This document shows, one piece after another, positions 17,565 to 28,801 of a stretch of DNA of 64,000 nucleotides. Both the position numbers and the translations under genes were made by a program. Every line of letters begins with the position of its first letter. The first letter of the stretch is position 1. The DNA comes from a phage, in sequence record OZ346222.1; one strand, written 5' to 3'. Under the pieces are notes generated by a model. It was not told where the DNA came from, did no database searches, and saw only the letters and a program-made list of their open reading frames with translations.

Positions 17565-17828
17565 TCAGAAACCCTCTAAAAAGCTCTTGTAGAAAACAAT
17601 CTCAGTATCCACACCAGTCACAATCTTGTCGTTCCTGATTTCATCGGTAAGATAGGTGTCAAAACGCAGAACCTGTGTGGTGTTGTCACACATCCACTCA
17701 GCTGTGACCATTGCGAAAATCTTAGCATCTTCATTATCTGGTGTGAATGTTACCACCTCACCGCACTTAAACTTTTCGATAGGCTGAGTGTTAGCTTTCG
17801 GTTCTGCGATAGTGATTTTTGTGGTCAT
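17565..17828 (-). CDS. small protein, tandem paralog 3 of 3
   Basis: 87 aa; same length and shared pattern (basic N-terminus, C/PG-x-VV core) as the two upstream copies; junction overlaps. Confidence 0.5.
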   Translation of the reverse strand: MTTKITIAEPKANTQPIEKFKCGEVVTFTPDNEDAKIFAMVTAEWMCDNTTQVLRFDTYLTDEIRNDKIVTGVDTEIVFYKSFLEGF

Positions 17829-18091
17829 TATTCTCCTCCTTCTTTTGAATAGCTTGTCTCTCCAAGGATGGTAATTTTGGTGTCAAGCTCTGTAACTTTC
17901 ATGTTTGGCGGCAGATCGTACAACTCATTATTTTCTAAATCGAACCCCCACACACAATGTTCTCCTGTTTTGACAATCATAACTATGTTTTGAATGCCGT
18001 CTCCGTCGCAACTTACCACGGTCCCACACGGAAAACTGTCTGCACGCTTTTTGTTCTTCACCTTAGAATTGAATACAATGCTGGTAGCCAT
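17828..18091 (-). CDS. small protein, tandem paralog 2 of 3
   Basis: 87 aa; FPCGTVVSCDGDG core; ATG overlaps neighbour stop. Confidence 0.5.
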   Translation of the reverse strand: MATSIVFNSKVKNKKRADSFPCGTVVSCDGDGIQNIVMIVKTGEHCVWGFDLENNELYDLPPNMKVTELDTKITILGETSYSKEGGE

Positions 18092-18354
18092 TATTGTTCC
18101 TCCACCATAACTTCGCCAAGAATTTCTATGCAGGCATCCATTTCTGTAACAACCAAACTGTGAGGTAGTTCTACAAACACCTTTCTGAACAGGTCAAATA
18201 CCCCAACATATATGTTTGCAGGATGTGATTTTACAACAAGTGCTGTATTCACATCCCCAAGTTCATCAACAAACATCACCACAGTGCCCGGAGCTACTGA
18301 GGACAGATACTTCTTAGTTTTACGGTTTGATGCAAATTTTAACTCTGTTGCCAT
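18091..18354 (-). CDS. small protein, tandem paralog 1 of 3
   Basis: 87 aa; VAPGTVVMFVDELGD core; ATG overlaps neighbour stop. Confidence 0.5.
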   Translation of the reverse strand: MATELKFASNRKTKKYLSSVAPGTVVMFVDELGDVNTALVVKSHPANIYVGVFDLFRKVFVELPHSLVVTEMDACIEILGEVMVEEQ

Positions 18355-18369
18355 AAATAACCTCCTCTC

Positions 18370-19851
18370 TTACTTAGCGTACTCGATTAATTCCACAGTT
18401 TTCCCAAAGCTCGGGATATAATTTTTATTATACCCCTCAGTGAGGACCCATAGAGTATCGTACTTTTTCCACTTGTTGTCAACAACCTTTTGTTCAAAGT
18501 TATGCTCAAAGTATAGGTCGGTCAGGACGATGACATCTTTTGCATTAGGTATGTTGGCATCCAGATACTCGAACACGCAAGCAGCTGTTGTGCCCCATGT
18601 TGAGTGGACCTCATAGTTGATCATCTCGTCTATGTTGCCGCGAGTGTATACTTTAACCTCTCCAACCTCAGTTGACCAACAGAACATTGTAACCTTAAAC
18701 TCTTTATACAGATTGCACAATCCGGTGATTTCATTGAACATTTTCTTTAAAGTTCTTTGAGAGATCGAGCCAGAAACGTCTAAAGCCACCACAATATCTA
18801 TAGTGTTTTCCGGATTACGACCAGGAACAATAACGTGCTGGTTCTTGTTTATAGCCCCAACTTTTCGCATTGTGCTGGTCAAAGACCCAGATCGGCGACC
18901 AGGTTTTCTGTAGGTCAGTTCGGCCTTTCTTTTAGACAACATACGTTGCTTAATGATGTCTATATAGTTGATTACAGGCTTACCTCTGTTCTTGACAAAC
19001 TCACGCACCGCCTCAGGGCAACGGCCTCCGGACGCTTGCATTGCTGCCTCCAGCATATCACCAGAGTCCTGCATGGCCTGATCTTTATCAGATTGGCTGA
19101 TTACAGGTTGTGGCTGATCATACCCCATAGCCTTTCCAAGATTATCACTGGTGCCACCGTTCCCACTCATGTGATCATCGGTTTGTCGCTTATCACTTTG
19201 AGAGTTCTCACCTTTACCGTTCTTACTTTTACCGTTATTCTGATCTCTTTGCTTATCAAGAACTGCATAAACGTTCTCAGCAATCCATCCATGAAACTTC
19301 ATGTCGCAGTAGCAGCTGGCTAAGAAGCCAAAAGGCTTACCTTTCATGAACGTAGTGCTTTTCCCCTTCGGGAAGAAAACACAAGGAGGTTTGCTAAAGT
19401 CAACCACAAGGCCTGTGTTGATAACGTGATCACAAGCAATATTGAACAGTTCCGGCTCAAAGCTTTTACCACGGACTAGGTGATCACAGATAATATGCCC
19501 CACCTCATGTGACAGAAGGAAGGCCACCTCTTTCACAGATTTTGGGGAATAGAAAACTTCAGCCATCTCAAACTGCTCGTCAGTTAGAGAAGCCTTAAGA
19601 ATAGCCTTGCGTTCATCAGCCAATCCCATAATGAACTCAGGACTGTAATAGATGCGTTTATGGTCGGTTGCCATGGTGGAGCACCATGTGTGGTTTTCTA
19701 CGAACTGCAACCCTGACAGTAGTGTGCCATAAAACGGCAGCTTTTCAAGGAGATACATACGTGCAGCCTGCAACATTCTCAGGGCATCATCTTTCTGCGA
19801 GGCAATGATTTCTGAACTTCTGCTATCCATTAAAACTCCAGAAGGGGCCAT
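18370..19851 (-). CDS. vWA-domain protein with N-terminal HExxH metallopeptidase-like domain
   Basis: 493 aa; HEVGHIICDH (HExxH) in the N-terminal half; VVALDVSGSI (DxSxS MIDAS motif) in the C-terminal half; architecture typical of VWA partners of MoxR-type ATPases. Confidence 0.65.
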   Translation of the reverse strand: MAPSGVLMDSRSSEIIASQKDDALRMLQAARMYLLEKLPFYGTLLSGLQFVENHTWCSTMATDHKRIYYSPEFIMGLADERKAILKASLTDEQFEMAEVFYSPKSVKEVAFLLSHEVGHIICDHLVRGKSFEPELFNIACDHVINTGLVVDFSKPPCVFFPKGKSTTFMKGKPFGFLASCYCDMKFHGWIAENVYAVLDKQRDQNNGKSKNGKGENSQSDKRQTDDHMSGNGGTSDNLGKAMGYDQPQPVISQSDKDQAMQDSGDMLEAAMQASGGRCPEAVREFVKNRGKPVINYIDIIKQRMLSKRKAELTYRKPGRRSGSLTSTMRKVGAINKNQHVIVPGRNPENTIDIVVALDVSGSISQRTLKKMFNEITGLCNLYKEFKVTMFCWSTEVGEVKVYTRGNIDEMINYEVHSTWGTTAACVFEYLDANIPNAKDVIVLTDLYFEHNFEQKVVDNKWKKYDTLWVLTEGYNKNYIPSFGKTVELIEYAK

Positions 19852-19863
19852 TGGCCCCTGTCA

Positions 19864-20907
19864 TTATTTAACGTGTTTGAAAATACCTGCCAACTCGGTC
19901 ATTGTCATGCGGGTGGTCTTCATAAGATCTGTCATAGCTTTCTCCATAATTGGAGATACTACCATAAAGTTTCCTTTAGTGAAACCTTTATTCCAGTCGG
20001 TCACCAACAGGGGTTTAAGTCCAGCTCCAAGACGTTCACCAGTTAAAGCACAGCATTTGCGAATATACGAACTCTTAAATTGGCTGAACGACAGATCAAC
20101 TTTCATACCTACATCGTAGAACGTTTGACAATAGAAAGTGTAAGCTTTGGCAATCTCAACATCATCAGGTAGTGCAGGAACCTCTTCTGTAAGCTCCTCT
20201 TCGACCTCCTGAGTCTCTTTTTCCTCTTCATGCACCTGTTGCGTCATTTCTTCAATCTCTTCTGTGATAGGCTCGTTTACAATGTCGGAAATGTGCTTCT
20301 TGGGTGCACGATAAGTAACTTTAGACATCGGTAGCATATCTTCCTCCTCTTCTTCGTCAAAGAGTGCTAGTTTATCCTCTTCCGTTCCATATTGCAAGAT
20401 GAAATCTTCAAAAGTATAATCACCTTTCAATTTCTCCATACGCTCTTCGCTCAGGTGGAGCATCATCTGCTGGACAATTTTTCGATCAGTTTCGTCTTTA
20501 ATCAAGACTGCAGTCTTTTTATCTACCAGACAGTCCTTTAGAGAGTTGCATCTCAATCCCACCACACAACAGTTATCAACCGCATAAGGACCTTCATCAT
20601 CTATCCGCTCCAGAGATGGGTAGAAAGGATTCCCCAGCCCGTTTTCATCTGTGTGCATGTCAAAAGGTATAAGGGTATAGTCGCATACTCCATCTCCTAA
20701 AAGTTTTTTACCAAATAGGAGATATTCTTCCCATGACAGGTCGAACTCTATATCTCGTTTCCGTGCGTTATTCTGTTTGCGTCTATATTTTTTGAGCAAG
20801 CGCTCTAACTCTTCTGGTGTATAATATTTTTCAAGATTCATGAGTCGTCTCTCGTGCTCTGTAAGTGAAGAAATCGTATCAATTGTCTCAACAGATGTCA
20901 ACATCAA
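19864..20907 (-). CDS. hypothetical protein with Glu-rich acidic central region
   Basis: 347 aa; acidic stretch (EEEKETQEVEEELTEEV); contains the PMSKVTYRA peptide shared with gene 22172..22528. Confidence 0.5.
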   Translation of the reverse strand: MMLTSVETIDTISSLTEHERRLMNLEKYYTPEELERLLKKYRRKQNNARKRDIEFDLSWEEYLLFGKKLLGDGVCDYTLIPFDMHTDENGLGNPFYPSLERIDDEGPYAVDNCCVVGLRCNSLKDCLVDKKTAVLIKDETDRKIVQQMMLHLSEERMEKLKGDYTFEDFILQYGTEEDKLALFDEEEEEDMLPMSKVTYRAPKKHISDIVNEPITEEIEEMTQQVHEEEKETQEVEEELTEEVPALPDDVEIAKAYTFYCQTFYDVGMKVDLSFSQFKSSYIRKCCALTGERLGAGLKPLLVTDWNKGFTKGNFMVVSPIMEKAMTDLMKTTRMTMTELAGIFKHVK

Positions 20908-20914
20908 AAACGTG

Positions 20915-20943
20915 TTGACTTTACTCTAACTCCACAATATAGT
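20915..20943 (+). promoter_or_regulatory. sigma70-type promoter for rightward gene block
   Basis: TTGACT-17 nt-TATAGT in the divergent intergenic region about 40 nt upstream of the 20984 start. Confidence 0.5.
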
Positions 20944-20983
20944 GCACCCATTCGAAAGAAAACTAACATAGGAGCACTTACTT

Positions 20984-21883
20984 ATGGCAAATCTTAACAG
21001 TTTTAGTACGCGGTGGAAACAGGACATAACAACCAATCTTTCAGCTGGGGACATCCTTTCTGCAATTTACGAGGCTTTAGATGATAAAGCTACTTCAAAA
21101 GCGGTTTGTACCAACCCATTAATTCCTATAGTGATGAAGGTTATTGAGCGTAGATTGGTATCTGGGTCTGATAAGTGGACATATTTAGATAATGAAGGAC
21201 ACACCTATTCCAATGGGTATGTCGATATAAAAGTAGAATACGCGGTATCATACCGCCGGAGCGGTTCTGTAACTTTCAACTTCTCTGGAGGTTTTCGATC
21301 TCTGGCTACCTCACCTTTTGTTTCCTCAGAGGAGAAGTATGAGCTGCCATTTCTTTGGATGATGGCTAACGCGACAGGAAAAACCCCCGTTAGCATCCGA
21401 GTAAAATACAACTACAACGGATCTAGTAAGATCTATGCCGAAAGTGTCTCAGCAAGTTTTTATTTTGTGATGGGGGATGGAATCCTCAAACATATAAAGA
21501 TGTGCGATATGCATGATGTTATAAATGAAGTGACTGATAAGAATGTTCTAGTGAAAGACCTCAACAATTTTTATACACCCGGAGACTATTACGTCAGCCG
21601 TCCACTGTGCATCTTTAATGCCGCACACCCTCTAGGTGAGTATTTGATCGCCAATAGCGATATTGCCAATAACCGCTTCGAGGTAGCAAGAGTTCAGAAT
21701 GAGGTATTGACATCTTGCAAGAGCGGTGATAAGTTTACCGAAGAAGAGATGGGTGTTTTAGAAATGATGGGATATAAGTGTAGCCTTTGGGTAGATGAGG
21801 TGTTCAATGATTGCATCTATGGACAGGATATTTACCCATTAAAGAAGTATACTGATTCCAGTTTAATTTACGCGGAGATTTGA
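20984..21883 (+). CDS. hypothetical protein
   Basis: 299-aa ORF, first gene of rightward block; RBS AGGAG upstream. Confidence 0.55.
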   Translation: MANLNSFSTRWKQDITTNLSAGDILSAIYEALDDKATSKAVCTNPLIPIVMKVIERRLVSGSDKWTYLDNEGHTYSNGYVDIKVEYAVSYRRSGSVTFNFSGGFRSLATSPFVSSEEKYELPFLWMMANATGKTPVSIRVKYNYNGSSKIYAESVSASFYFVMGDGILKHIKMCDMHDVINEVTDKNVLVKDLNNFYTPGDYYVSRPLCIFNAAHPLGEYLIANSDIANNRFEVARVQNEVLTSCKSGDKFTEEEMGVLEMMGYKCSLWVDEVFNDCIYGQDIYPLKKYTDSSLIYAEI

Positions 21884-22158
21884 CTATGATGAAGTCATGT
21901 GGTAGTGTATATTATGTTGGTGAGAATGTTCAGGCAGATAGTGTGTGGAAATCCATTAAGTCCACCACCGATGATGCCTTTCTGAGCGGGTTATGTTTTC
22001 CCAGCCCAGGGGACACTCTCCCTTACCCTGGAGATTTTGTTGTCAACAAGATGGACGGTTATACCGTGTGCCTGATGGTTGAAAAAATCTTTTTAGACAC
22101 TAGACACAATCACCGTCTTGTGTTAAAATTTCAAGAATGTAAAATGACAATTGCCTAA
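21880..22158 (+). CDS. hypothetical protein
   Basis: 92-aa ORF overlapping upstream stop (ATGA). Confidence 0.45.
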   Translation: MTMMKSCGSVYYVGENVQADSVWKSIKSTTDDAFLSGLCFPSPGDTLPYPGDFVVNKMDGYTVCLMVEKIFLDTRHNHRLVLKFQECKMTIA

Positions 22159-22171
22159 GGAGACCTTGCCG

Positions 22172-22528
22172 ATGTCTAAAGTTACTTATCGTGCAGCTAT
22201 TTACTGCAATGAACACCCAATCAATAATGATGGTCACTGCCTTTTTAAAGAAAATCAATTGGGCTGTATTGTCCTCCCTGATGAAGGGGAAGGTTATCTG
22301 ATTGCGTTGACAGGGTTTGAACCTGAAGCTCTGGAAGCCAATCTTGACTACCTGGTAGAGGAGGGTGCTGCAGACCTGGTTGCCAATGGCCTCTCCATAA
22401 GCCTTGACGAAGTGGAGCGCTTCATGGGCAATTACCGTGTAGTGCGTGAGTTTACTATCGAGGTGGAAACTCCCGAGTGGGGTAGCCATGAAACTAATGC
22501 CGAAGAAAAAGAAGAGGAGGTAGAATAA
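22172..22528 (+). CDS. hypothetical acidic protein
   Basis: Start taken at first ATG (track ORF begins at TTG 22151) with TAAGGAG 9 nt upstream; acidic C-terminus. Confidence 0.45.
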   Translation: MSKVTYRAAIYCNEHPINNDGHCLFKENQLGCIVLPDEGEGYLIALTGFEPEALEANLDYLVEEGAADLVANGLSISLDEVERFMGNYRVVREFTIEVETPEWGSHETNAEEKEEEVE

Positions 22529-22785
22529 TGAAAGTGCAGATCTTGACTAATGCCGAGAAGATGTTTATTGAAGATACACCTTTTGAAGCTGGTGAGCTAC
22601 AGTTCGTTTATTTTGTTGACTTAGATAAGGTGTTTCCTGCACTGAATCTAGGTTTGGATGAAGTTCCTCATAAGGTTTTGTGCCAAGTTGTTCGTGCCTT
22701 AGCGGCAGAGGGGGAGTTCCACACCCTTCAAGATATCCAGACCTACGGGTATCTTGAACTACAACGAGAAGAAGAGGTGGACTGA
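22528..22785 (+). CDS. hypothetical protein
   Basis: 85-aa ORF; ATG overlaps upstream stop. Confidence 0.5.
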   Translation: MKVQILTNAEKMFIEDTPFEAGELQFVYFVDLDKVFPALNLGLDEVPHKVLCQVVRALAAEGEFHTLQDIQTYGYLELQREEEVD

Positions 22786-22787
22786 TA

Positions 22788-23168
22788 ATGGCTCAGTGGA
22801 AGACAACAGTTGACCTTCATGATCAGTGGTTAGGACGCATCACTGAAGACGGGAAGCTAGTGGAGTGGGACAATAAGCATGTTAGCGAGTTGGCAAGTAT
22901 TGTGGCTGGCAAGTTACGCTCCAAGTTCCCTGAACAACTGGATCCTGATAGTTCAAAGTTCGATCCTGAGTTAGAGGATGTTGTATACTACTTCGACACC
23001 GTTGATGACTACGACGCGTGGTTTGCAGCACGGGAGCTTTACCCACAAGGCTCTGCTATGCGCCAGATGGAAGAAGATTATCCTCCGTGTGAGCAATTCA
23101 ATAGTGCAATGACTTGCCTCTATGATTGGGCAGATAAGAACCTTGTCTGGATTCGGACTGCATTTTAG
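22788..23168 (+). CDS. hypothetical protein
   Basis: 126-aa ORF. Confidence 0.5.
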   Translation: MAQWKTTVDLHDQWLGRITEDGKLVEWDNKHVSELASIVAGKLRSKFPEQLDPDSSKFDPELEDVVYYFDTVDDYDAWFAARELYPQGSAMRQMEEDYPPCEQFNSAMTCLYDWADKNLVWIRTAF

Positions 23169-23212
23169 TGGGCAGGAATGGCGGCAAGGATGCTGCTTAA
23201 GGAGTAGTAGAG

Positions 23213-23482
23213 ATGTTATACCAGCAATATGAACTTCGTGCAGAAAAAGAGTTAAATTTTGACAAAGATATTCACAGATATTATTATGGGAAAGTTAGAG
23301 GGCAAGCAAGAAAGTGTACTCCAACACTCTTTTATGCCAGCAGACGACTAGCGCCAGAAGAGGCAACAGCAGAAAGGGTTGCGTACAACTGGAGAGTCAC
23401 GTATGATATTGACAGATTCGATGTGATATCTGTTTTGGAAAACTTTGAAAACACTTACACACAAGTAGAGGACTTTTACTAA
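23213..23482 (+). CDS. hypothetical protein
   Basis: 89-aa ORF, RBS GGAG upstream. Confidence 0.5.
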   Translation: MLYQQYELRAEKELNFDKDIHRYYYGKVRGQARKCTPTLFYASRRLAPEEATAERVAYNWRVTYDIDRFDVISVLENFENTYTQVEDFY

Positions 23483-24666
23483 TGTCAAGAAACGTATTCG
23501 AAAGTGGTCAAATCACTGTCCGTGAGTTGCCAGCTATTATTCAGTTTGCCCAACGTCATAGCCGATCTGTCCTAATTTTGGGACCAATGGGTGTGGGTAA
23601 AAGCCAGGTGATGAAGCAGATCGCTGATAATATGTTCGGTGAGCGAGATGACAACCTTGTTGACGTGCGACTGTCAGATAAAGATCCTGCCGACTTATCT
23701 GGGCTACCTATCCCTGTAGAAGCGGATGGAACTACACGTACAGTGTTTGCAATTCCAGAATTTTGGCCTGCGGATCCTGACTGGAGCGGAATTATCTTTC
23801 TGGATGAGCTCACTCATGCAGATAACTACCTGCAAAAGGTTGCAATGCAAATTATGCTTGACCACAAGTGCGGCACCTATGCATTCCCTAAGGGTTCTGT
23901 TTTTGTGGCTGCGGGTAACCGTTCTACAGATGGTGCGGTTCTTTCGGCGCTCGAAGCCCCTCTGGCTAACCGTTTTATCATTGTAGAGGTTACAAGCAAT
24001 GCAGAGGTGTTTATTGAGGACTACGCATTCCTCAACGGGGTTCACTCCTCTGTAATTGGGTATCTGAAAAGAGTTCCATCAGCTATTGATAATTATGAGG
24101 CTATGGCTGAGATTAATTGTCCATCTTTTGCCACACCACGATCTTGGGTTGCTGCATCTGACATCTTGCACGATTTTGACAGCGGTATTATTTCTGACGC
24201 TATGGCCCGTGTTCTTCTACAAGGTGCTATTGGTCACACTGCAGCGGTAGAGATCTGGACTTACCACACCAAGAAACGTAATTTACCGGAAATCGGTCGG
24301 ATTATGGCAGGTGGCTGCAAAGAATACGTAGGTCCTAAGCAGCCAGACATTTTGTGGATTCTTGGATCTGAAGGTTGTATCGCTATTCGCAATATGATGG
24401 AAAATGCAAGTATCTCCGACGAAGATCTTGTTAGCTGTGTGGCAAACTTCCTCGATTTCCTTTGGGAAAATTTCAAGGACGAGAACCGAGATTTTGTATT
24501 CTCAGTCTTTATGGCGATGATGAAACCTAACGCCTTAGGAAATGCCTTGCTTATCGGTAAAGGGCGTGACAAGATTGTTGCTCAGTTGATCAAAGCATAT
24601 CCAAACCTGATGAAGATTGTAAAAGAGTTTGGTGAAGAGTTTAGCGCCATTTTGGCTAAAGCTTAA
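23482..24666 (+). CDS. AAA+ ATPase, MoxR-like
   Basis: 394 aa; Walker A GPMGVGKS, Walker B IIFLDELTHA; size and motifs typical of MoxR/CbbQ-type ATPases that pair with vWA proteins. Confidence 0.65.
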   Translation: MSRNVFESGQITVRELPAIIQFAQRHSRSVLILGPMGVGKSQVMKQIADNMFGERDDNLVDVRLSDKDPADLSGLPIPVEADGTTRTVFAIPEFWPADPDWSGIIFLDELTHADNYLQKVAMQIMLDHKCGTYAFPKGSVFVAAGNRSTDGAVLSALEAPLANRFIIVEVTSNAEVFIEDYAFLNGVHSSVIGYLKRVPSAIDNYEAMAEINCPSFATPRSWVAASDILHDFDSGIISDAMARVLLQGAIGHTAAVEIWTYHTKKRNLPEIGRIMAGGCKEYVGPKQPDILWILGSEGCIAIRNMMENASISDEDLVSCVANFLDFLWENFKDENRDFVFSVFMAMMKPNALGNALLIGKGRDKIVAQLIKAYPNLMKIVKEFGEEFSAILAKA

Positions 24667-24675
24667 GGGGGTTGT

Positions 24676-25056
24676 ATGGCTAAAGTAGGTAAGCGGGGAA
24701 ACTACCTGGTGGTATTGACCGAGGAGCCGGAGAAGGAGTACGAGTGCAGCTCCACTTGCGTGATCGATATCCGAGAAAAGGATGTGGATGAAATCTGGTT
24801 TGAAATATTAGACGCTTGCGACAGCAGTGATTATTTCTTCATCTATGTCAACGATAAGGCTGGATTCTTCCATGACGACGGAGAGTTGCCGTATGAAATC
24901 TATGAACTTGTAGAGGCTTGCCATCGTGGAGATGCGGAGTTGTTTGGCCTACGGCTGAAAAGCGGTAAATTCTTCTATCAAGATGAGTGCATGAATCTTC
25001 ATAACTTTGTAGAGGGAACTTGCAACGATGGAGAGATTTTGGCACACTACGATTAA
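24676..25056 (+). CDS. hypothetical acidic protein
   Basis: 126-aa ORF, Asp/Glu-rich; RBS GGGGG upstream. Confidence 0.5.
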   Translation: MAKVGKRGNYLVVLTEEPEKEYECSSTCVIDIREKDVDEIWFEILDACDSSDYFFIYVNDKAGFFHDDGELPYEIYELVEACHRGDAELFGLRLKSGKFFYQDECMNLHNFVEGTCNDGEILAHYD

Positions 25057-25065
25057 TTTCTAAGA

Positions 25066-25096
25066 CCTCCCCCGCTTCGGCGGGGATTTTCTATTT
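25066..25096 (+). terminator. rho-independent terminator
   Basis: CCCCCGC-TTCG-GCGGGG hairpin followed by ATTTTCTATTT. Confidence 0.55.
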
Positions 25097-25105
25097 GGAG
25101 TCATT

Positions 25106-25606
25106 GTGAAAATTAAGATCTTTGCTATTATTTTGAGCGCACTTTTATCGCTGCCTGTTGTTGCAGCACCAAAACAAAAAGTATATCATACTTGCAAGCC
25201 ATCAGATACTAAGGAAAACATTCTGGCATGCAATATCTACAGGGAAGCTAGAGGAGATGGCACGATGGGTATGCTGGCATCTGGGTTTGCCACACTAAAC
25301 AGGAAATCCCACCCTAAATACCCAGACACTATAAGAAAGATTGTCTACCAACCTAACCAGTTTTCGTGGACAAACCACGGCAAAACTTTTAAGGTGACAG
25401 AAAAAGATTCATGGGATCACGCTAAAAGTCTTGCAAAGATGCTTCTAAAGGTCTATAATAACAACCATGTTGCATACATGGCTATGGACATAACAGGTGG
25501 AGCAACACACTACCATACAACCAAAGTACGACCGAAATGGGCAAAAAAGATGCAGAGGACAGCTCAATTCGGGAGCCATATCTACTACAAGGAGCGCAAT
25601 AAATGA
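25106..25606 (+). CDS. secreted cell-wall hydrolase, SleB/CwlJ-like
   Basis: GTG start 5 nt after GGAG; N-terminal signal peptide (MKIKIFAIILSALLSLPVVAAP); core YREARGDG...LNRKSHPKYPDTIRKIVYQPNQFSW resembles the SleB-type hydrolase signature. Confidence 0.55.
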   Translation: MKIKIFAIILSALLSLPVVAAPKQKVYHTCKPSDTKENILACNIYREARGDGTMGMLASGFATLNRKSHPKYPDTIRKIVYQPNQFSWTNHGKTFKVTEKDSWDHAKSLAKMLLKVYNNNHVAYMAMDITGGATHYHTTKVRPKWAKKMQRTAQFGSHIYYKERNK

Positions 25607-27585
25607 TCGTAAACAGTAATGAAACTAAAGCGGTACTAACCGGGAATATGGAGGTCACCAGGGGCTCAATTTCTCTGAACAAAGAGACTTTTGGGCTAAT
25701 CATTAAAGGGATTTACGAAGATAAGGTGCTGGCAAGCTGCCGTGAACCAATCTTCAATGCCGTGGACTCCCATGTTGAGTCTGGACGGGGTGATGTACCG
25801 ATCATTATTCACTCTCCTACAGACCTTGAACCATACTTCTTTGTGCAGGACGTTGGATTGGGCATGTCAGAAGAGATGGTCCGCAACACTTTCATGAACC
25901 TCGGGGAGTCAACCAAGCGCAACAGCAACGCTCTGGTAGGTAATAAAGGTGTTGGTTCAAAGGCTCCGTTCAGCATGGTGGACACTTTCGATGTTATCAG
26001 TGTGCACAATGGTGTTGAAAGCACATATCTATTGTTCTTGGATCAGGGTATCCCAAACGTTACCAAGATCCGTGAGCGGAAGACTGAAGAGCACAACGGG
26101 GTAAAAGTTCAGTTCCATGTTAAGAAAGAGCATGTCCTGAAATATCGCACTGCTATTGCATCGTGCTTACGCTATGCGAAGTTTCCGTTCATCGTCACCG
26201 ATCCTATGACCAGTAAGATGTTAGAAGGTGACAAGGTTGAGGCACAGTATCATTACGAGAAGGATGGCTGGAAAATGACCATCCTGAAAGGTTATACCAG
26301 TTCTGATGAGAGCCGTGTTGTGATGGGTCACCAACCTTACCGCTCCAAGTTCCTGGAGACATTGACCGATTACCCTGCAATCTGCGTGGAAATTCCTATT
26401 GGGGATTGCAATATTAACCCTGGGCGTGAATGGACCATAGAGGGCCATGACGACGGTGGATTCCAGGATCGCCTGGAGGCCTTTGTCAAAGAAGGTATAC
26501 GTCTTCGCGGGGCAGAAGTTGTTGCAGAACTGGAGACGGCAAAAACCTCCGCAGAAGCACGTGAAATGATGAAGAATAGTGGAGTGTTCGGACACATCTT
26601 CGGCAAAAACTTTATGTGGAACCGTTGGGAAGAAACAGGGCTTGGCGACTTAGGCGATTGTGAAATTTTCGCTGGCGGCTTAAATAAAGGCCGCATAGGC
26701 TATGCTCGTTACGGAAAGTCGGAGTTCTTACGAGGTGTATACCTTGTATTTAACGACGGAGACGGCAAATATAACCGGAATAAGTGTAACTACTTAAGCG
26801 AGATCACCGGACGCAACGTTTTCTATTGCCGGAACACGGATCTGGTGAAAGAGTTTAAAGAGGCGGCACACCATCCGTTCTTTGCAGATACGGTCAAATT
26901 GTTATCGGAGCTTCCACGCCGACCTGCGAAGAAAGGTGAAACCAAAACTCGTTACGAGCCAGGCTACTGGGTTAAGAAGCTTAGAGAGGATGGCTACTTC
27001 CATCGTGAGCGCCTCACGAAGGCAGAGTTCAAGAAGATTAAGCATTGCATCCCTTATGAGGGGGATATCCAACGGGGAAGCTGCTGGCTGGGCCAGATGA
27101 GTAACATCTACCAGCAAAATTATGACCGTGTGCGTGCGGCACTCCAGATTCCTGAAGGGGAAGACCTGTACCTGGTATCAGAATCCCGTCTGCTTTGGAC
27201 TGATCCTGATTGCCAGTATGTTACAGAGAAAAATGTGGAACATTTGTTGAAAGAGGACGCCTGGAAATTCTTACTGACTCGCGCAGCAAATGAAACTTCA
27301 TATGACAACCTGTATAGACAATTAGGGAAAATTATCCCCATGCAGGATTTTGGAAATTATCGGCCACATTTCCACAAGTGGGAAGGTAACACCGCGTGGA
27401 AGCACAGTGAGCTAAATCATCGTGCCAAAATCTTAATCGCCAACCGGGTTAAGTGCGGGAAGGCCTATATTGCAAGATTGGAAAAGAAATATCCACTTTT
27501 GAAGCATGTGGGCTTGAAATATTGGGACACTTCTGCTATGATTGAATACCGTGAACTGATCGATACAAAGAATAACATCAAATAA
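25603..27585 (+). CDS. rIIA-like protein with N-terminal GHKL-type ATPase fold
   Basis: 660 aa; FVQDVGLGMSEE (DxGxG box) and GNKGVGSKAPF (GxxGxG box) in N-terminal 130 aa match the Bergerat ATP-binding fold found in phage rIIA proteins. Confidence 0.45.
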   Translation: MIVNSNETKAVLTGNMEVTRGSISLNKETFGLIIKGIYEDKVLASCREPIFNAVDSHVESGRGDVPIIIHSPTDLEPYFFVQDVGLGMSEEMVRNTFMNLGESTKRNSNALVGNKGVGSKAPFSMVDTFDVISVHNGVESTYLLFLDQGIPNVTKIRERKTEEHNGVKVQFHVKKEHVLKYRTAIASCLRYAKFPFIVTDPMTSKMLEGDKVEAQYHYEKDGWKMTILKGYTSSDESRVVMGHQPYRSKFLETLTDYPAICVEIPIGDCNINPGREWTIEGHDDGGFQDRLEAFVKEGIRLRGAEVVAELETAKTSAEAREMMKNSGVFGHIFGKNFMWNRWEETGLGDLGDCEIFAGGLNKGRIGYARYGKSEFLRGVYLVFNDGDGKYNRNKCNYLSEITGRNVFYCRNTDLVKEFKEAAHHPFFADTVKLLSELPRRPAKKGETKTRYEPGYWVKKLREDGYFHRERLTKAEFKKIKHCIPYEGDIQRGSCWLGQMSNIYQQNYDRVRAALQIPEGEDLYLVSESRLLWTDPDCQYVTEKNVEHLLKEDAWKFLLTRAANETSYDNLYRQLGKIIPMQDFGNYRPHFHKWEGNTAWKHSELNHRAKILIANRVKCGKAYIARLEKKYPLLKHVGLKYWDTSAMIEYRELIDTKNNIK

Positions 27586-27595
27586 GGAGACCAAG

Positions 27596-28801
27596 ATGAT
27601 TTTCATCTACGAACATTTCAAAACCCGTAAAGAAGCACGAGACCGCCGTGCAGAACTTGAGAAGAAGGGTTTCACATGTGCCATTGAGAAAGGCGACACA
27701 ACCTGGACACTGGCAGTGGGTGCCCCAGAGTTGTTCGATCCTGACCGTGACAGCGTCTGCTACACCCGTGAGGATTTTGAAACCCGCGAAGAGGCCCGTT
27801 TATCCCGCTATGGATTGGAAGATAATGGTAAGTACGCCATGATCTTAGACTTAGGCGAAGGTTCCGTTAAACGTTGGGGCGTGGTATACCCACTGTGTGT
27901 TGTTCACGGTGTGGGGTTCACTGGGGTGGCAATCAAGTCAGAAGAACCTTTAGTAGAAGTTAAAGATCCGGTGCTGGAGGTGGTGAGCAGTGTGTCTCAG
28001 CAACAAACTCGAAGCATCGAGCCTTTGGTAGTTATTTGTGGGGAACTCCTCCAGATCACCTGCAACGAAGGCATTTTTGAAATTCGCCGCAGCGAAAGTG
28101 AGGAAGTTTACCAGAAAGTCTTCGACCATATCTCTGTTCAGGAATATGACGAGGCAATTGGTGAAATCCTTGTCTGGCTGGAACGCAAGAATGAGTTCAC
28201 CACACTTGCAGACAACCTGATCATGAAAGATGGTAAGCTCTACTACTACGGTGTAGAGATGCGATCCACCATTGCAAAGAAAATTGAGAAAGATTATGCA
28301 GACGGAACGCTGGATGACCGCTATGTGAAATTCCTCGTTCGCCTGCTACGCAATCCTTCTGCAAAATCTGTAAACATGCTCTACGATTTTATGCAGGCCA
28401 ATGATATTCAGATTGCAGAAGATGGTCGAATCATTTGCTACAAAGGGGTTCAGTTTAACGGTAGCAAGTGGGTGGATTGGCACAGTGGTAAAGTCCCACA
28501 ATACCAAGGTGCTTTTGTATCCATGCCTCGTAACTTTGTAGAGGATGATCCTGAAGCTGCGTGCTCCTATGGCTTACACTGCGCCAGCAAAGAGTATGCG
28601 AAGAGCTACGGCACTGTAATGCCTGTCATGGTTGACCCTGCAGATGTGGTTAGTGTGCCATACCAACACAATAGCGCTAAGTGCCGTGCATGCCGCTATG
28701 AGATTGTGGTAGCTCCGGAAGCACGCAAGGACGGAGACCCGATTGAATACGTGGTTGACCGAGACGGTAACACTATCGACATTCTTTACGAGGAGGCGTA
28801 A
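27596..28801 (+). CDS. hypothetical protein (position consistent with an rIIB-like partner)
   Basis: 401-aa ORF immediately downstream of rIIA-like gene, RBS AAGGAGA; no diagnostic motif, rIIB assignment is positional only. Confidence 0.35.
   Translation: MIFIYEHFKTRKEARDRRAELEKKGFTCAIEKGDTTWTLAVGAPELFDPDRDSVCYTREDFETREEARLSRYGLEDNGKYAMILDLGEGSVKRWGVVYPLCVVHGVGFTGVAIKSEEPLVEVKDPVLEVVSSVSQQQTRSIEPLVVICGELLQITCNEGIFEIRRSESEEVYQKVFDHISVQEYDEAIGEILVWLERKNEFTTLADNLIMKDGKLYYYGVEMRSTIAKKIEKDYADGTLDDRYVKFLVRLLRNPSAKSVNMLYDFMQANDIQIAEDGRIICYKGVQFNGSKWVDWHSGKVPQYQGAFVSMPRNFVEDDPEAACSYGLHCASKEYAKSYGTVMPVMVDPADVVSVPYQHNSAKCRACRYEIVVAPEARKDGDPIEYVVDRDGNTIDILYEEA

Follow-up and report, generated by a model that had tools for sequence, protein, structure and literature searches.

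A MoxR-class ATPase and a zincin-like/vWA adaptor encoded on opposite arms of a bidirectional promoter in rV5-like phages are probable components of one conserved phage system

Two divergent genes of a probable phage system

The phage sequence record OZ346222.1, of which a whole stretch of 64,000 nucleotides (the window) was analyzed, encodes a MoxR-like AAA+ ATPase and a protein that combines a zincin-like N-terminal domain with a C-terminal vWA domain carrying a metal ion-dependent adhesion site (MIDAS). Our analyses indicate that these two genes are probably components of one conserved phage system, a MoxR-class ATPase with its zincin/vWA adaptor, the same as the gp24/gp25 pair of phage N4 and as the pair known from jumbo phages. 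We favor this reading because the homology of the proteins, their folds, their intact motifs, the adjacency of the genes elsewhere and their co-retention here all point in this direction. An initial annotation of the window, made from the letters alone, had reported both open reading frames (ORFs) and four motifs, two in each protein, and all of them were recovered at the same positions. It had also placed the genes on opposite strands 3.6 kb apart. Indeed, we measured a gap of 3,630 bp between the two ORFs, which flank a junction at 20842-20983. The two genes are:

18370..19830, minus strand: zincin-like peptidase plus vWA/MIDAS adaptor gene (rV5 gene 12; N4 gp25 homologue), 486 amino acids (aa) from the probable start
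23482..24666, plus strand: MoxR-like AAA+ ATPase gene (rV5 gene 4; N4 gp24 homologue), 394 aa

Escherichia phage A51.2 shared 99.5% identity with region 18000-25100 of the window, and for Murica, CM1, and numerous further rV5-like phages of the genus Vequintavirus the value was 99%. Used as a query, this region matched 122 records, 115 of which spanned at least 80% of its length. The ATPase ORF is rV5 gene 4 and the adaptor (DUF2201) ORF is rV5 gene 12. In Table S3 of the rV5 genome paper, gene 4 appears as "MoxR - ATPase" with 394 aa and gene 12 as a conserved hypothetical gene with PF13203 DUF2201_N (PMC3606486). The window and over 100 near-identical genomes carry both genes intact. Phage records matching the ATPase and the adaptor numbered approximately 750 and 580, respectively, and the jumbo phages 121Q, Muenster, and GAP32 were among the tblastn matches of both window proteins.

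Two observations concern individual records. In the rV5 type record (DQ832317), a break divides the DUF2201 gene between genes 12 and 13, with ORFs of 441 aa and 81 aa that appeared as two tblastn pieces (PMC3606486, Table S3). This frameshift was isolated to one record, the equivalent of 18370-19830 being unbroken in the window and in the other relatives, and it reflects either an error in sequencing or a frameshift particular to that strain. Moreover, 16 records named 'Campylobacter phage' (MG065635, MG065647, MG065666, and others), with Campylobacter jejuni in the host field, matched region 18000-25100, and the three named records were approximately 99% identical to this region of an E. coli phage. 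The host attribution of these 16 records looks doubtful, and contamination or a sample mix-up is possible.

The adaptor combines a zincin-like domain with a vWA domain

Two Pfam domains were found above their gathering cutoffs in the adaptor, namely PF13203 DUF2201_N in the N-terminal part (E 4.4e-28, 99.1 bits for a cutoff of 23.2) and PF09967 DUF2201 "VWA-like domain" in the C-terminal part (E 6.1e-11, 43 bits for a cutoff of 26.4). The hidden Markov model (HMM) searches that the initial annotation had proposed recognized this protein, whereas the ATPase scored below all cutoffs on its own and was recognized as MoxR-like through its relatives and its fold. The zincin signature HEVGHIICDH (pattern HExxHx4H) occupies residues 115-124 (nt 19509-19480, minus strand) and the MIDAS motif DVSGS residues 358-362 (nt 18780-18766, minus strand), with residue numbers referring to the longest ORF (18370-19851, minus strand, 493 aa). 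In the alignment of 25-29 relatives, with identities down to approximately 20%, residues H115, E116, H119, H124, and D141 of the peptidase-like domain were invariant, as was the MIDAS set D358, S360, G361, S362, G420, T421, T444, and D445. The MIDAS is complete (DxSxS ... T ... D) and sits in a confirmed vWA fold, for which structure comparison returned the adaptors NorD, midasin, and BchD among the matches. The N-terminal domain is likely a zincin-like peptidase. Other features of the adaptor are a low-confidence linker rich in acidic, Gly, Ser, and Gln residues (approximately residues 205-250), a conserved TYxRPxRR motif (approximately residues 315-320), and, near the C-terminus, a conserved W468 and P..FG483 motif.

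The ORF stood as first annotated, from 18370 to 19851, but the gene itself probably starts at 19830. We favor this start because the ATG at 19851 falls in the loop of a GC-rich hairpin (19843-19859), while the ATG at 19830 has a GGAG before it and is where deposited records begin the gene.

The PHROGs database labels the DUF2201 family (phrog_1314) 'HNH endonuclease'. We rejected this label since Pfam detected no HNH domain and the family is DUF2201. The Srd-like anti-sigma family encoded next to it (phrog_3118; ORF at 19864-20907, minus strand) bears the same label, and there too no HNH domain was found by Pfam. Of note, the label has spread into RefSeq and GenBank, including the records of Murica (NC_041871), Hena1, Aeromonas phage 4L372XY, and Bacillus phage G. 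We also searched PADLOC, where the DUF2201 protein had no match at all and the ATPase gave P-loop-level matches only (E >0.002). A defense-system identity of the pair was rejected on this ground.

The ATPase core belongs to the MoxR class

The Walker A motif GPMGVGKS of the ATPase spans residues 34-41 (nt 23581-23604, plus strand) and the Walker B motif IIFLDELTHA residues 104-113 (nt 23791-23820, plus strand). Twelve positions (G37, G39, K40, S41, D108, E109, N146, R147, N163, R164, P219, and R220) were invariant among 30 ATPase relatives, and they include sensor 1 (N146), the arginine finger (R164), and sensor 2 (R220), whose roles were assigned by position. Relatives of this ATPase number in the thousands, and a large group of them, found at E ~1e-44 with 34% identity across 85% of the query length, carries AAA_3 (PF07726) and AAA_5 (PF07728). 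Likewise, 13 of the 30 aligned family members matched AAA_5 and AAA_3, with best E-values of 2.4e-9 and 3.1e-8, respectively, five matched bpMoxR, and the family profile reached the AAA domains of midasin with an E-value of 1.8e-13. Single-sequence searches of the Protein Data Bank (PDB) gave either no match or matches confined to the P-loop of Clp and p97 ATPases.

The AlphaFold2 model of the ATPase had a predicted local distance difference test (pLDDT) score of 85.6. This monomer model contains a helix-2-insert hairpin (strands 75-81 and 84-90), which follows helix 2 and precedes the Walker B strand, as well as a pre-sensor-1 insert at approximately residues 128-139. With Foldseek, the top matches of this model were NorQ and the "MoxR AAA+ ATPase" CbbQ2 (E 6e-9), followed at lower rank by the classical MoxR protein CHU_0153 (2r44, E 7.5e-7), dynein, and McrB. 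Since the relatives, the family profile, and the modeled fold agree, the ATPase core is assigned to the MoxR class, nearest to the CbbQ/NorQ branch, despite its own score below the Pfam cutoffs. The helix-2-insert region was the most conserved non-catalytic part of the protein. Compared with NorQ and CbbQ (approximately 250-270 aa), the window ATPase has an extra helical C-terminal region of approximately 125 residues (about residues 270-394; nt 24290-24666), of which approximately residues 335-360 are missing in relatives of 360 aa. In NorQD, it is the ATPase C-terminal domain on which the N-terminal domain of the adaptor docks (PMC13036017).

The two genes are adjacent at most viral and cellular loci surveyed

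Loci were found with an alignment of the ATPase, and HMMs of both families were then scanned over each locus. The DUF2201 gene was present in 70 of the 80 viral contigs that contained an ATPase relative, and in 68 of these 70 it lay directly downstream of the ATPase gene on the same strand. The two exceptions, an rV5-like contig and Klebsiella phage BIS47, both had the split arrangement. Nine of the 10 loci without a DUF2201 gene stopped at the contig edge. The tenth, L041 (IMGVR_UViG_3300043446_001178), extends 1.07 kb downstream without a DUF2201 match; this contig is 4 kb long and an intervening inserted gene is possible. Among 75 informative cellular loci, 65 had adjacent genes, eight had both genes on the same strand 1-5.7 kb apart, two had no DUF2201 gene within reach, and none was divergent. 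These numbers agree with the initial annotation, according to which such pairs are normally adjacent and co-directional.

The adjacent order was also observed in a large-phage contig, in Sulfurivermis, in an N4-like Sulfitobacter phage, in Aeromonas phage 4L372XY, and in jumbo phage Muenster. From match coordinates, it was found in DL64, Frozen, R7L, and phiA009 as well. The neighbors of the pair in most lineages were replication and nucleotide-metabolism genes (5'-3' exonuclease, thymidylate synthase, dUTPase, Thy1, DNA polymerase, primase). In the window, they were the Srd-like, rIIA, and rIIB genes.

A single relocation could explain the split

To place the split arrangement, the related genomes of the Vequintavirinae are informative. 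Certrevirus POP15, phage A73, and Acinetobacter phage ABPH49 have the ATPase-then-adaptor order, and their pair is located two to five genes downstream of the divergent junction. The adaptor gene is on the opposite arm in four genera, Vequintavirus, Seunavirus (4MG), Mydovirus (BIS47), and Henunavirus (Hena1), and in all four it stands behind the Srd-like anti-sigma gene, which is its constant upstream neighbor. A core GTCAA(C/T)ACTTGA made of back-to-back -35 boxes was conserved at the junctions of split and adjacent relatives alike, and at the relatives' junctions (L088, L009, L089, L090, L093) these boxes directly abut. On this conservation, the junction is considered homologous in the two types, and the simplest history is that the split is the derived state, produced by one relocation in the common ancestor of the four genera. 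The ancestral adaptor gene, just downstream of the ATPase gene, would have moved across the conserved sigma-70-type bidirectional promoter to a position behind the Srd-like gene. The arrangement had been treated as unexplained in the initial annotation, a view that this gene-neighborhood comparison replaces with a single derived relocation common to four genera. The 126-aa gene that follows the ATPase (24676-25056) had no similarity to the gene following DUF2201 in adjacent-type genomes, so no clean-excision mark was seen.

After such a relocation the partnership could have dissolved, with the rV5-like proteins acting independently or one of them decaying. The operon link has indeed been lost, and the frameshift of the rV5 record splits the DUF2201 gene. 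However, that frameshift is confined to one record and both genes are intact in the window and its near-identical genomes. Moreover, the four split genera all retain both genes with intact catalytic and MIDAS residues, and their proteins have diverged in parallel to 43-53% identity. In pairs of ATPase/adaptor values, the identities to the window proteins were 50/46, 53/43, 43/43, 37/37, 35/36, 34/36, and 32/27%. We therefore consider a dissolved partnership highly improbable, and continued action of the two proteins as one system remains the favored reading.

Promoters, hairpins, and the timing of the two genes

The following features were predicted around the two genes:

20842..20983, strandless: bidirectional promoter junction, from consensus matches; bidirectional promoters of rV5 are published (PMC3606486)
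20901-20873, minus strand: predicted leftward sigma-70-like site, TTGACA-17-TACGAT with TG
20915-20943, plus strand: predicted rightward sigma-70-like site, TTGACT-17-TATAGT
19864..20841, minus strand: Srd-like anti-sigma gene (rV5 gene 11, phrog_3118), first gene of the leftward arm
19843..19859, minus strand: GC-rich hairpin AGGGGCCAAUGGCCCCU between the Srd-like and DUF2201 genes, with a perfect 7-bp stem and a local fold of -18 kcal/mol
20984..25056, plus strand: rightward arm (rV5 genes 10 to 3), nine tightly packed genes of which the ATPase gene is the eighth
25070..25085, plus strand: intrinsic-terminator-like hairpin CCCCGCTTCGGCGGGG with a T-rich tail, which closes the ATPase arm segment; a terminator is annotated in Murica and Gotham

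Both junction promoters were predicted independently at the same positions in the Gotham record. Their -35 boxes form the arms of a palindrome (20897-20919), and it is conceivable that this palindrome is a shared regulator-binding site. In rV5, bidirectional promoters in the gap separating genes 10 and 11 were reported, with transcription units 10-1-238-164 and 11-26, while the late genes 27-66 form a separate unit with a T4-late-like motif (PMC3606486). The initial annotation had described divergent transcription units on either side of a divergent promoter region, and this description holds, given the back-to-back sigma-70-like sites and the published promoters. The DUF2201 gene is the second gene on the leftward arm, and the rightward arm continues without large gaps to the terminator at 25070-25085. 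We also looked for the T4 late-promoter motif TATAAATA, which had two matches in the window (2.8 expected) and none near either gene, making this search uninformative. The position of both genes outside the rV5 late unit suggests that the pair is not expressed late. In N4, gp24 and gp25 are middle transcripts and belong to the set of 14 genes that form the core of N4-like phages (PMC4193335).

The initial annotation had further proposed that the split reflects separate temporal control, that is, production of the ATPase and of the adaptor would be staggered in time and their complex would form only in a defined period of the infection. The genes do belong to different transcription units, a hairpin precedes the DUF2201 gene, and the best sigma-70-like match of the scanned region (TTGACA-17-TATTAT, 11/12) is located just upstream of the ATPase, at 23259-23287 on the plus strand, inside gene 5 and approximately 200 nt before the ATPase start. 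It may act as an internal promoter, or the match may be due to chance. On the other hand, one bidirectional promoter with similar sigma-70-like elements starts both arms, neither gene lies in the late unit, and the junction is conserved in adjacent-type relatives. Hairpins are also common at loci where the two genes are adjacent, and hence a partial uncoupling would be older than the split. We consider separate timing quite unlikely, and the analysis did not support this part of the initial annotation. Since both genes are proximal on arms leaving one bidirectional promoter and are outside the late unit, the split does not imply separate timing. The simplest reading is a similar early timing with an uncoupled dosage. 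Both proteins would be made early or in mid-infection from host-RNA-polymerase promoters, as their gene positions suggest, and the split would then change their relative dosage rather than their timing.

The hairpins gave more information on dosage. GC-rich hairpins were present upstream of the DUF2201 gene at 43 of 143 distinct loci. The ATPase gene had such hairpins upstream at eight of 156 loci, and shuffled sequences contained them in 26 of 715 cases, which gives an enrichment of approximately 6-8x before DUF2201 (L003-L174) in counts that ignore relatedness. The hairpins before DUF2201 were perfect and GC-rich, and many were flanked by A-runs and T-runs. The annotators of Muenster also put a terminator between the two adjacent genes, and the annotators of Murica put one at the hairpin 19843-19859, which may be an attenuator or an RNA-stability element. 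The enrichment suggests a built-in attenuation between the ATPase and DUF2201 genes. Because terminator-like hairpins are common at adjacent loci (30% versus approximately 4-5% in controls), a partial uncoupling of the two genes would predate the split, which fits dosage control. The NorQ hexamer binds one NorD, a 6:1 stoichiometry (PMC13036017), and by analogy the hairpins would fit a need for fewer adaptors than ATPase subunits.

Proposed function and alternatives

If the mechanism resembles that of NorQD, CbbQO, and midasin, the ATPase would form a hexamer in which the conserved helix-2 inserts grip the vWA finger in the pore, and the MIDAS would capture an acidic residue on a target protein (PMC13036017). 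ATP-driven rotation would then stretch the linker, so that the target would be remodeled and presented to the zinc-peptidase domain, or would activate it. The zincin-like N-terminal domain, which is specific to this family, suggests that remodeling is coupled to cleavage. The initial annotation considered the role of such pairs in phages not well established, and we came to the same view.

Several points weigh against this reading and against the similar timing of the two genes. The window ATPase alone remained below the Pfam cutoffs (AAA_5 at 16.7 bits for a cutoff of 22, AAA_3 unreported) and matched no NCBIfam family. For the N-terminal domain of the adaptor, the fold search returned no match among solved structures, and its profile matches were weak (minigluzincin MJ1213, E 0.011; M48, BepA, and HtpX peptidases, E 0.14-0.23), although all of them fall on the HExxH region; its proteolytic activity is thus putative. 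The locus surveys were clade-biased, with a few clades dominating, and their counts are not independent events. Promoter and terminator calls rest on consensus matches only, and promoter-like sites in the scanned region numbered 36 for 27 expected from shuffles. Separate regulation of each gene could come from the sigma-70-like site at 23259-23287 together with the 19843-19859 hairpin. Finally, the literature yielded no physical interaction, ATPase, peptidase, or expression data for these proteins in any phage, nor any expression or fitness data on these genes for rV5-like, N4-like, or PA5oct-type phages.

A different role, virion assembly, was proposed for the pair in group 2.2 jumbo phages on the model of Acidianus two-tailed virus and its MoxR-vWA proteins (PMC7824862). 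The pair would then act as an assembly chaperone and processing protease that assembles structural proteins or matures them proteolytically. The position of the pair in Muenster, just downstream of baseplate-wedge and head-completion genes, is consistent with such a role. Nevertheless, the window genes are in non-late arms near the Srd-like, rIIA, and rIIB genes and outside the late unit 27-66, N4 gp24/gp25 are middle rather than late (PMC4193335), and the neighbors elsewhere are replication and nucleotide-metabolism genes. The genomic context thus argues for a non-late role. Neither protein was flagged as a virion protein by mass spectrometry of rV5 (PMC3606486), a weak point because a chaperone need not be packaged. 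Overall, a virion-assembly role appears unlikely to us.

The pair could also be a metal-insertion or enzyme-maturation module such as NorQD, CbbQO, CobST, or BchID, in which HExxH would be a metal-handling site and the client, for example, a nucleotide-metabolism metalloenzyme of the phage or the host. The closest solved folds of the ATPase are NorQ and CbbQ, the vWA domains of NorD and BchD were matched, and the adaptor resembles NorD in having an N-terminal domain followed by a linker and a vWA domain. In addition, thymidylate synthase, dUTPase, and further nucleotide-metabolism genes are frequently encoded close to the pair. However, neither CobS, CobT, CbbQ_C, NorD, nor the chelatase families were matched in Pfam, and no conserved candidate client gene stood alongside the pair across the lineages compared. 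The invariant HExxH with its conserved Glu is a hallmark of zincin hydrolases, and the weak profile matches were all to peptidases. A maturation module seems very unlikely on these grounds.

The reading of a MoxR-class ATPase with a zincin/vWA adaptor can be extended to a more specific proposal, which we offer as tentative and rather unlikely. The pair would be a two-polypeptide, MIDAS-targeted AAA+ protease, a split counterpart of FtsH, acting early in many virulent phages (N4-like, rV5-like, jumbo) to cut or dismantle host proteins such as defense or transcription factors. In rV5-like phages, the adaptor would have been recruited into the transcript of the Srd-like anti-sigma gene as part of a host-takeover cassette.

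Neighboring genes

Other genes near the pair deserve mention. An 89-aa ORF at 23213-23482 (plus strand) has a stop codon that overlaps the ATPase start (ATGA). The label of its family (phrog_13164) is 'ATPase', and several records thereby show 'ATPase (x2)'. This ORF had no P-loop, no Pfam match, and no BLASTP counterpart in Seunavirus, Mydovirus, and Henunavirus. Directly downstream of the DUF2201 gene, at 17565-18354 (minus strand), are three tandem genes for 87-aa proteins, each exactly 264 nt long. They are diverged paralogues, the first two being 39% identical (E 1e-12), and ten columns were invariant in all three. Right after the terminator of the ATPase arm, 25106-28801 (plus strand) holds three genes, for a SleB-like cell-wall hydrolase whose N-terminus is hydrophobic, for rIIA (HATPase_c_3), and for rIIB. 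In a study with rII knock-downs in T4, MM02, EdH4, SUSP1, and N4, divergent rII modules were described as allowing superinfection of Rex lysogens (PMC11879866).

Significance

Earlier records already contained both genes, with the MoxR label and the DUF2201_N match, as well as the bidirectional promoter, and systems of this type had been reported from jumbo and N4-like phages. In the literature searched, we did not find it stated that rV5 genes 4 and 12 are the halves of an N4 gp24/gp25-type pair, that the divergent split is the derived state of four genera, or that hairpins commonly separate the adjacent genes. These three additions are modest, and the finding itself is ordinary, as the phage is a known one and one old rearrangement explains the arrangement. 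Still, the pair is widespread and its homologues are in the 14-gene core of N4-like phages. The rV5-like phages are easy E. coli phages, are in the BASEL collection, and have EdH4 as a representative. Because their two genes are on separate transcripts, each could be removed alone without polar effects, making the partnership and its target directly testable. More generally, a tightly conserved adjacent pair can split across a bidirectional promoter and yet stay co-retained in the long term, and the frequent hairpins between adjacent genes suggest an inbuilt control of dosage that would keep the adaptors few for each hexamer.

Comparison with known systems

A chelatase identity (CobS/CobT, BchI/BchD) was rejected, as there was no Pfam or NCBIfam match to these families for either protein or for the ATPase family; the BchD vWA domain was matched at the fold level only. 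Midasin (Rea1/Mdn1) differs in being one giant eukaryotic polypeptide with six fused AAA domains, which functions in ribosome biogenesis and is devoid of a peptidase domain. In the FtsH-type AAA+ zinc proteases, an AAA+ motor and an HExxH zinc peptidase are joined, and if the proposed mechanism holds, the window pair would be their counterpart made of two polypeptides, a functional analogy only. Indeed, FtsH belongs to another AAA+ clade and to peptidase family M41, and is a single membrane-anchored chain without a vWA/MIDAS adaptor.

NorQ/NorD and CbbQ/CbbO are closer, since they provide the nearest solved ATPase folds and a matched vWA domain (NorD), and the helix-2 insert is conserved in the window ATPase. 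The window adaptor has the NorD-like layout of an N-terminal domain, a linker, and a C-terminal vWA domain with a MIDAS. A finger-in-pore contact was reported for NorQD and is thought to be general for AAA+/vWA pairs (PMC13036017). The conserved helix-2 insert of the window ATPase and the W468 and P..FG483 motifs of its adaptor are compatible with such a contact. In contrast, NorD and CbbO are without the zincin-like HExxH N-terminal domain, NorQ and CbbQ are without the helical C-terminal region of approximately 125 residues, and the window pair is without detectable membership in these sequence families and without an evident metalloenzyme or Rubisco-type client.

Group 2.2 jumbo phages have a MoxR AAA+ and metallopeptidase-vWA 'chaperone-cochaperone' pair (Iyer et al., 2021, PMC7824862), and its two-protein architecture is that of the window pair. 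The jumbo-phage genes are adjacent, a virion-assembly role was proposed for them, and the description is limited to jumbo phages, whereas the rV5-like genes are split and their context suggests expression early or in mid-infection. For N4-like phages (Schitoviridae), the genes are adjacent and co-directional with middle transcription by the phage RNAPII, unlike the window genes, which are on opposite strands, 3.6 kb apart, and preceded by host-type sigma-70 promoters. The sequence identity between the N4-like and window pairs is only approximately 20-27%. Nonetheless, in an N4-like Sulfitobacter phage the family HMMs recognized the ATPase with an E-value of 4.6e-41 and the DUF2201 protein with 3e-133, the window DUF2201 protein matched a record annotated 'N4 gp25-like protein', and the annotators of Muenster noted homology to N4 YP_950502 and YP_950503. 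Thus, both proteins are homologous to N4 gp24 and gp25 and share their domain architecture, and the window gene pair, like the middle-transcribed N4 pair, is probably non-late.

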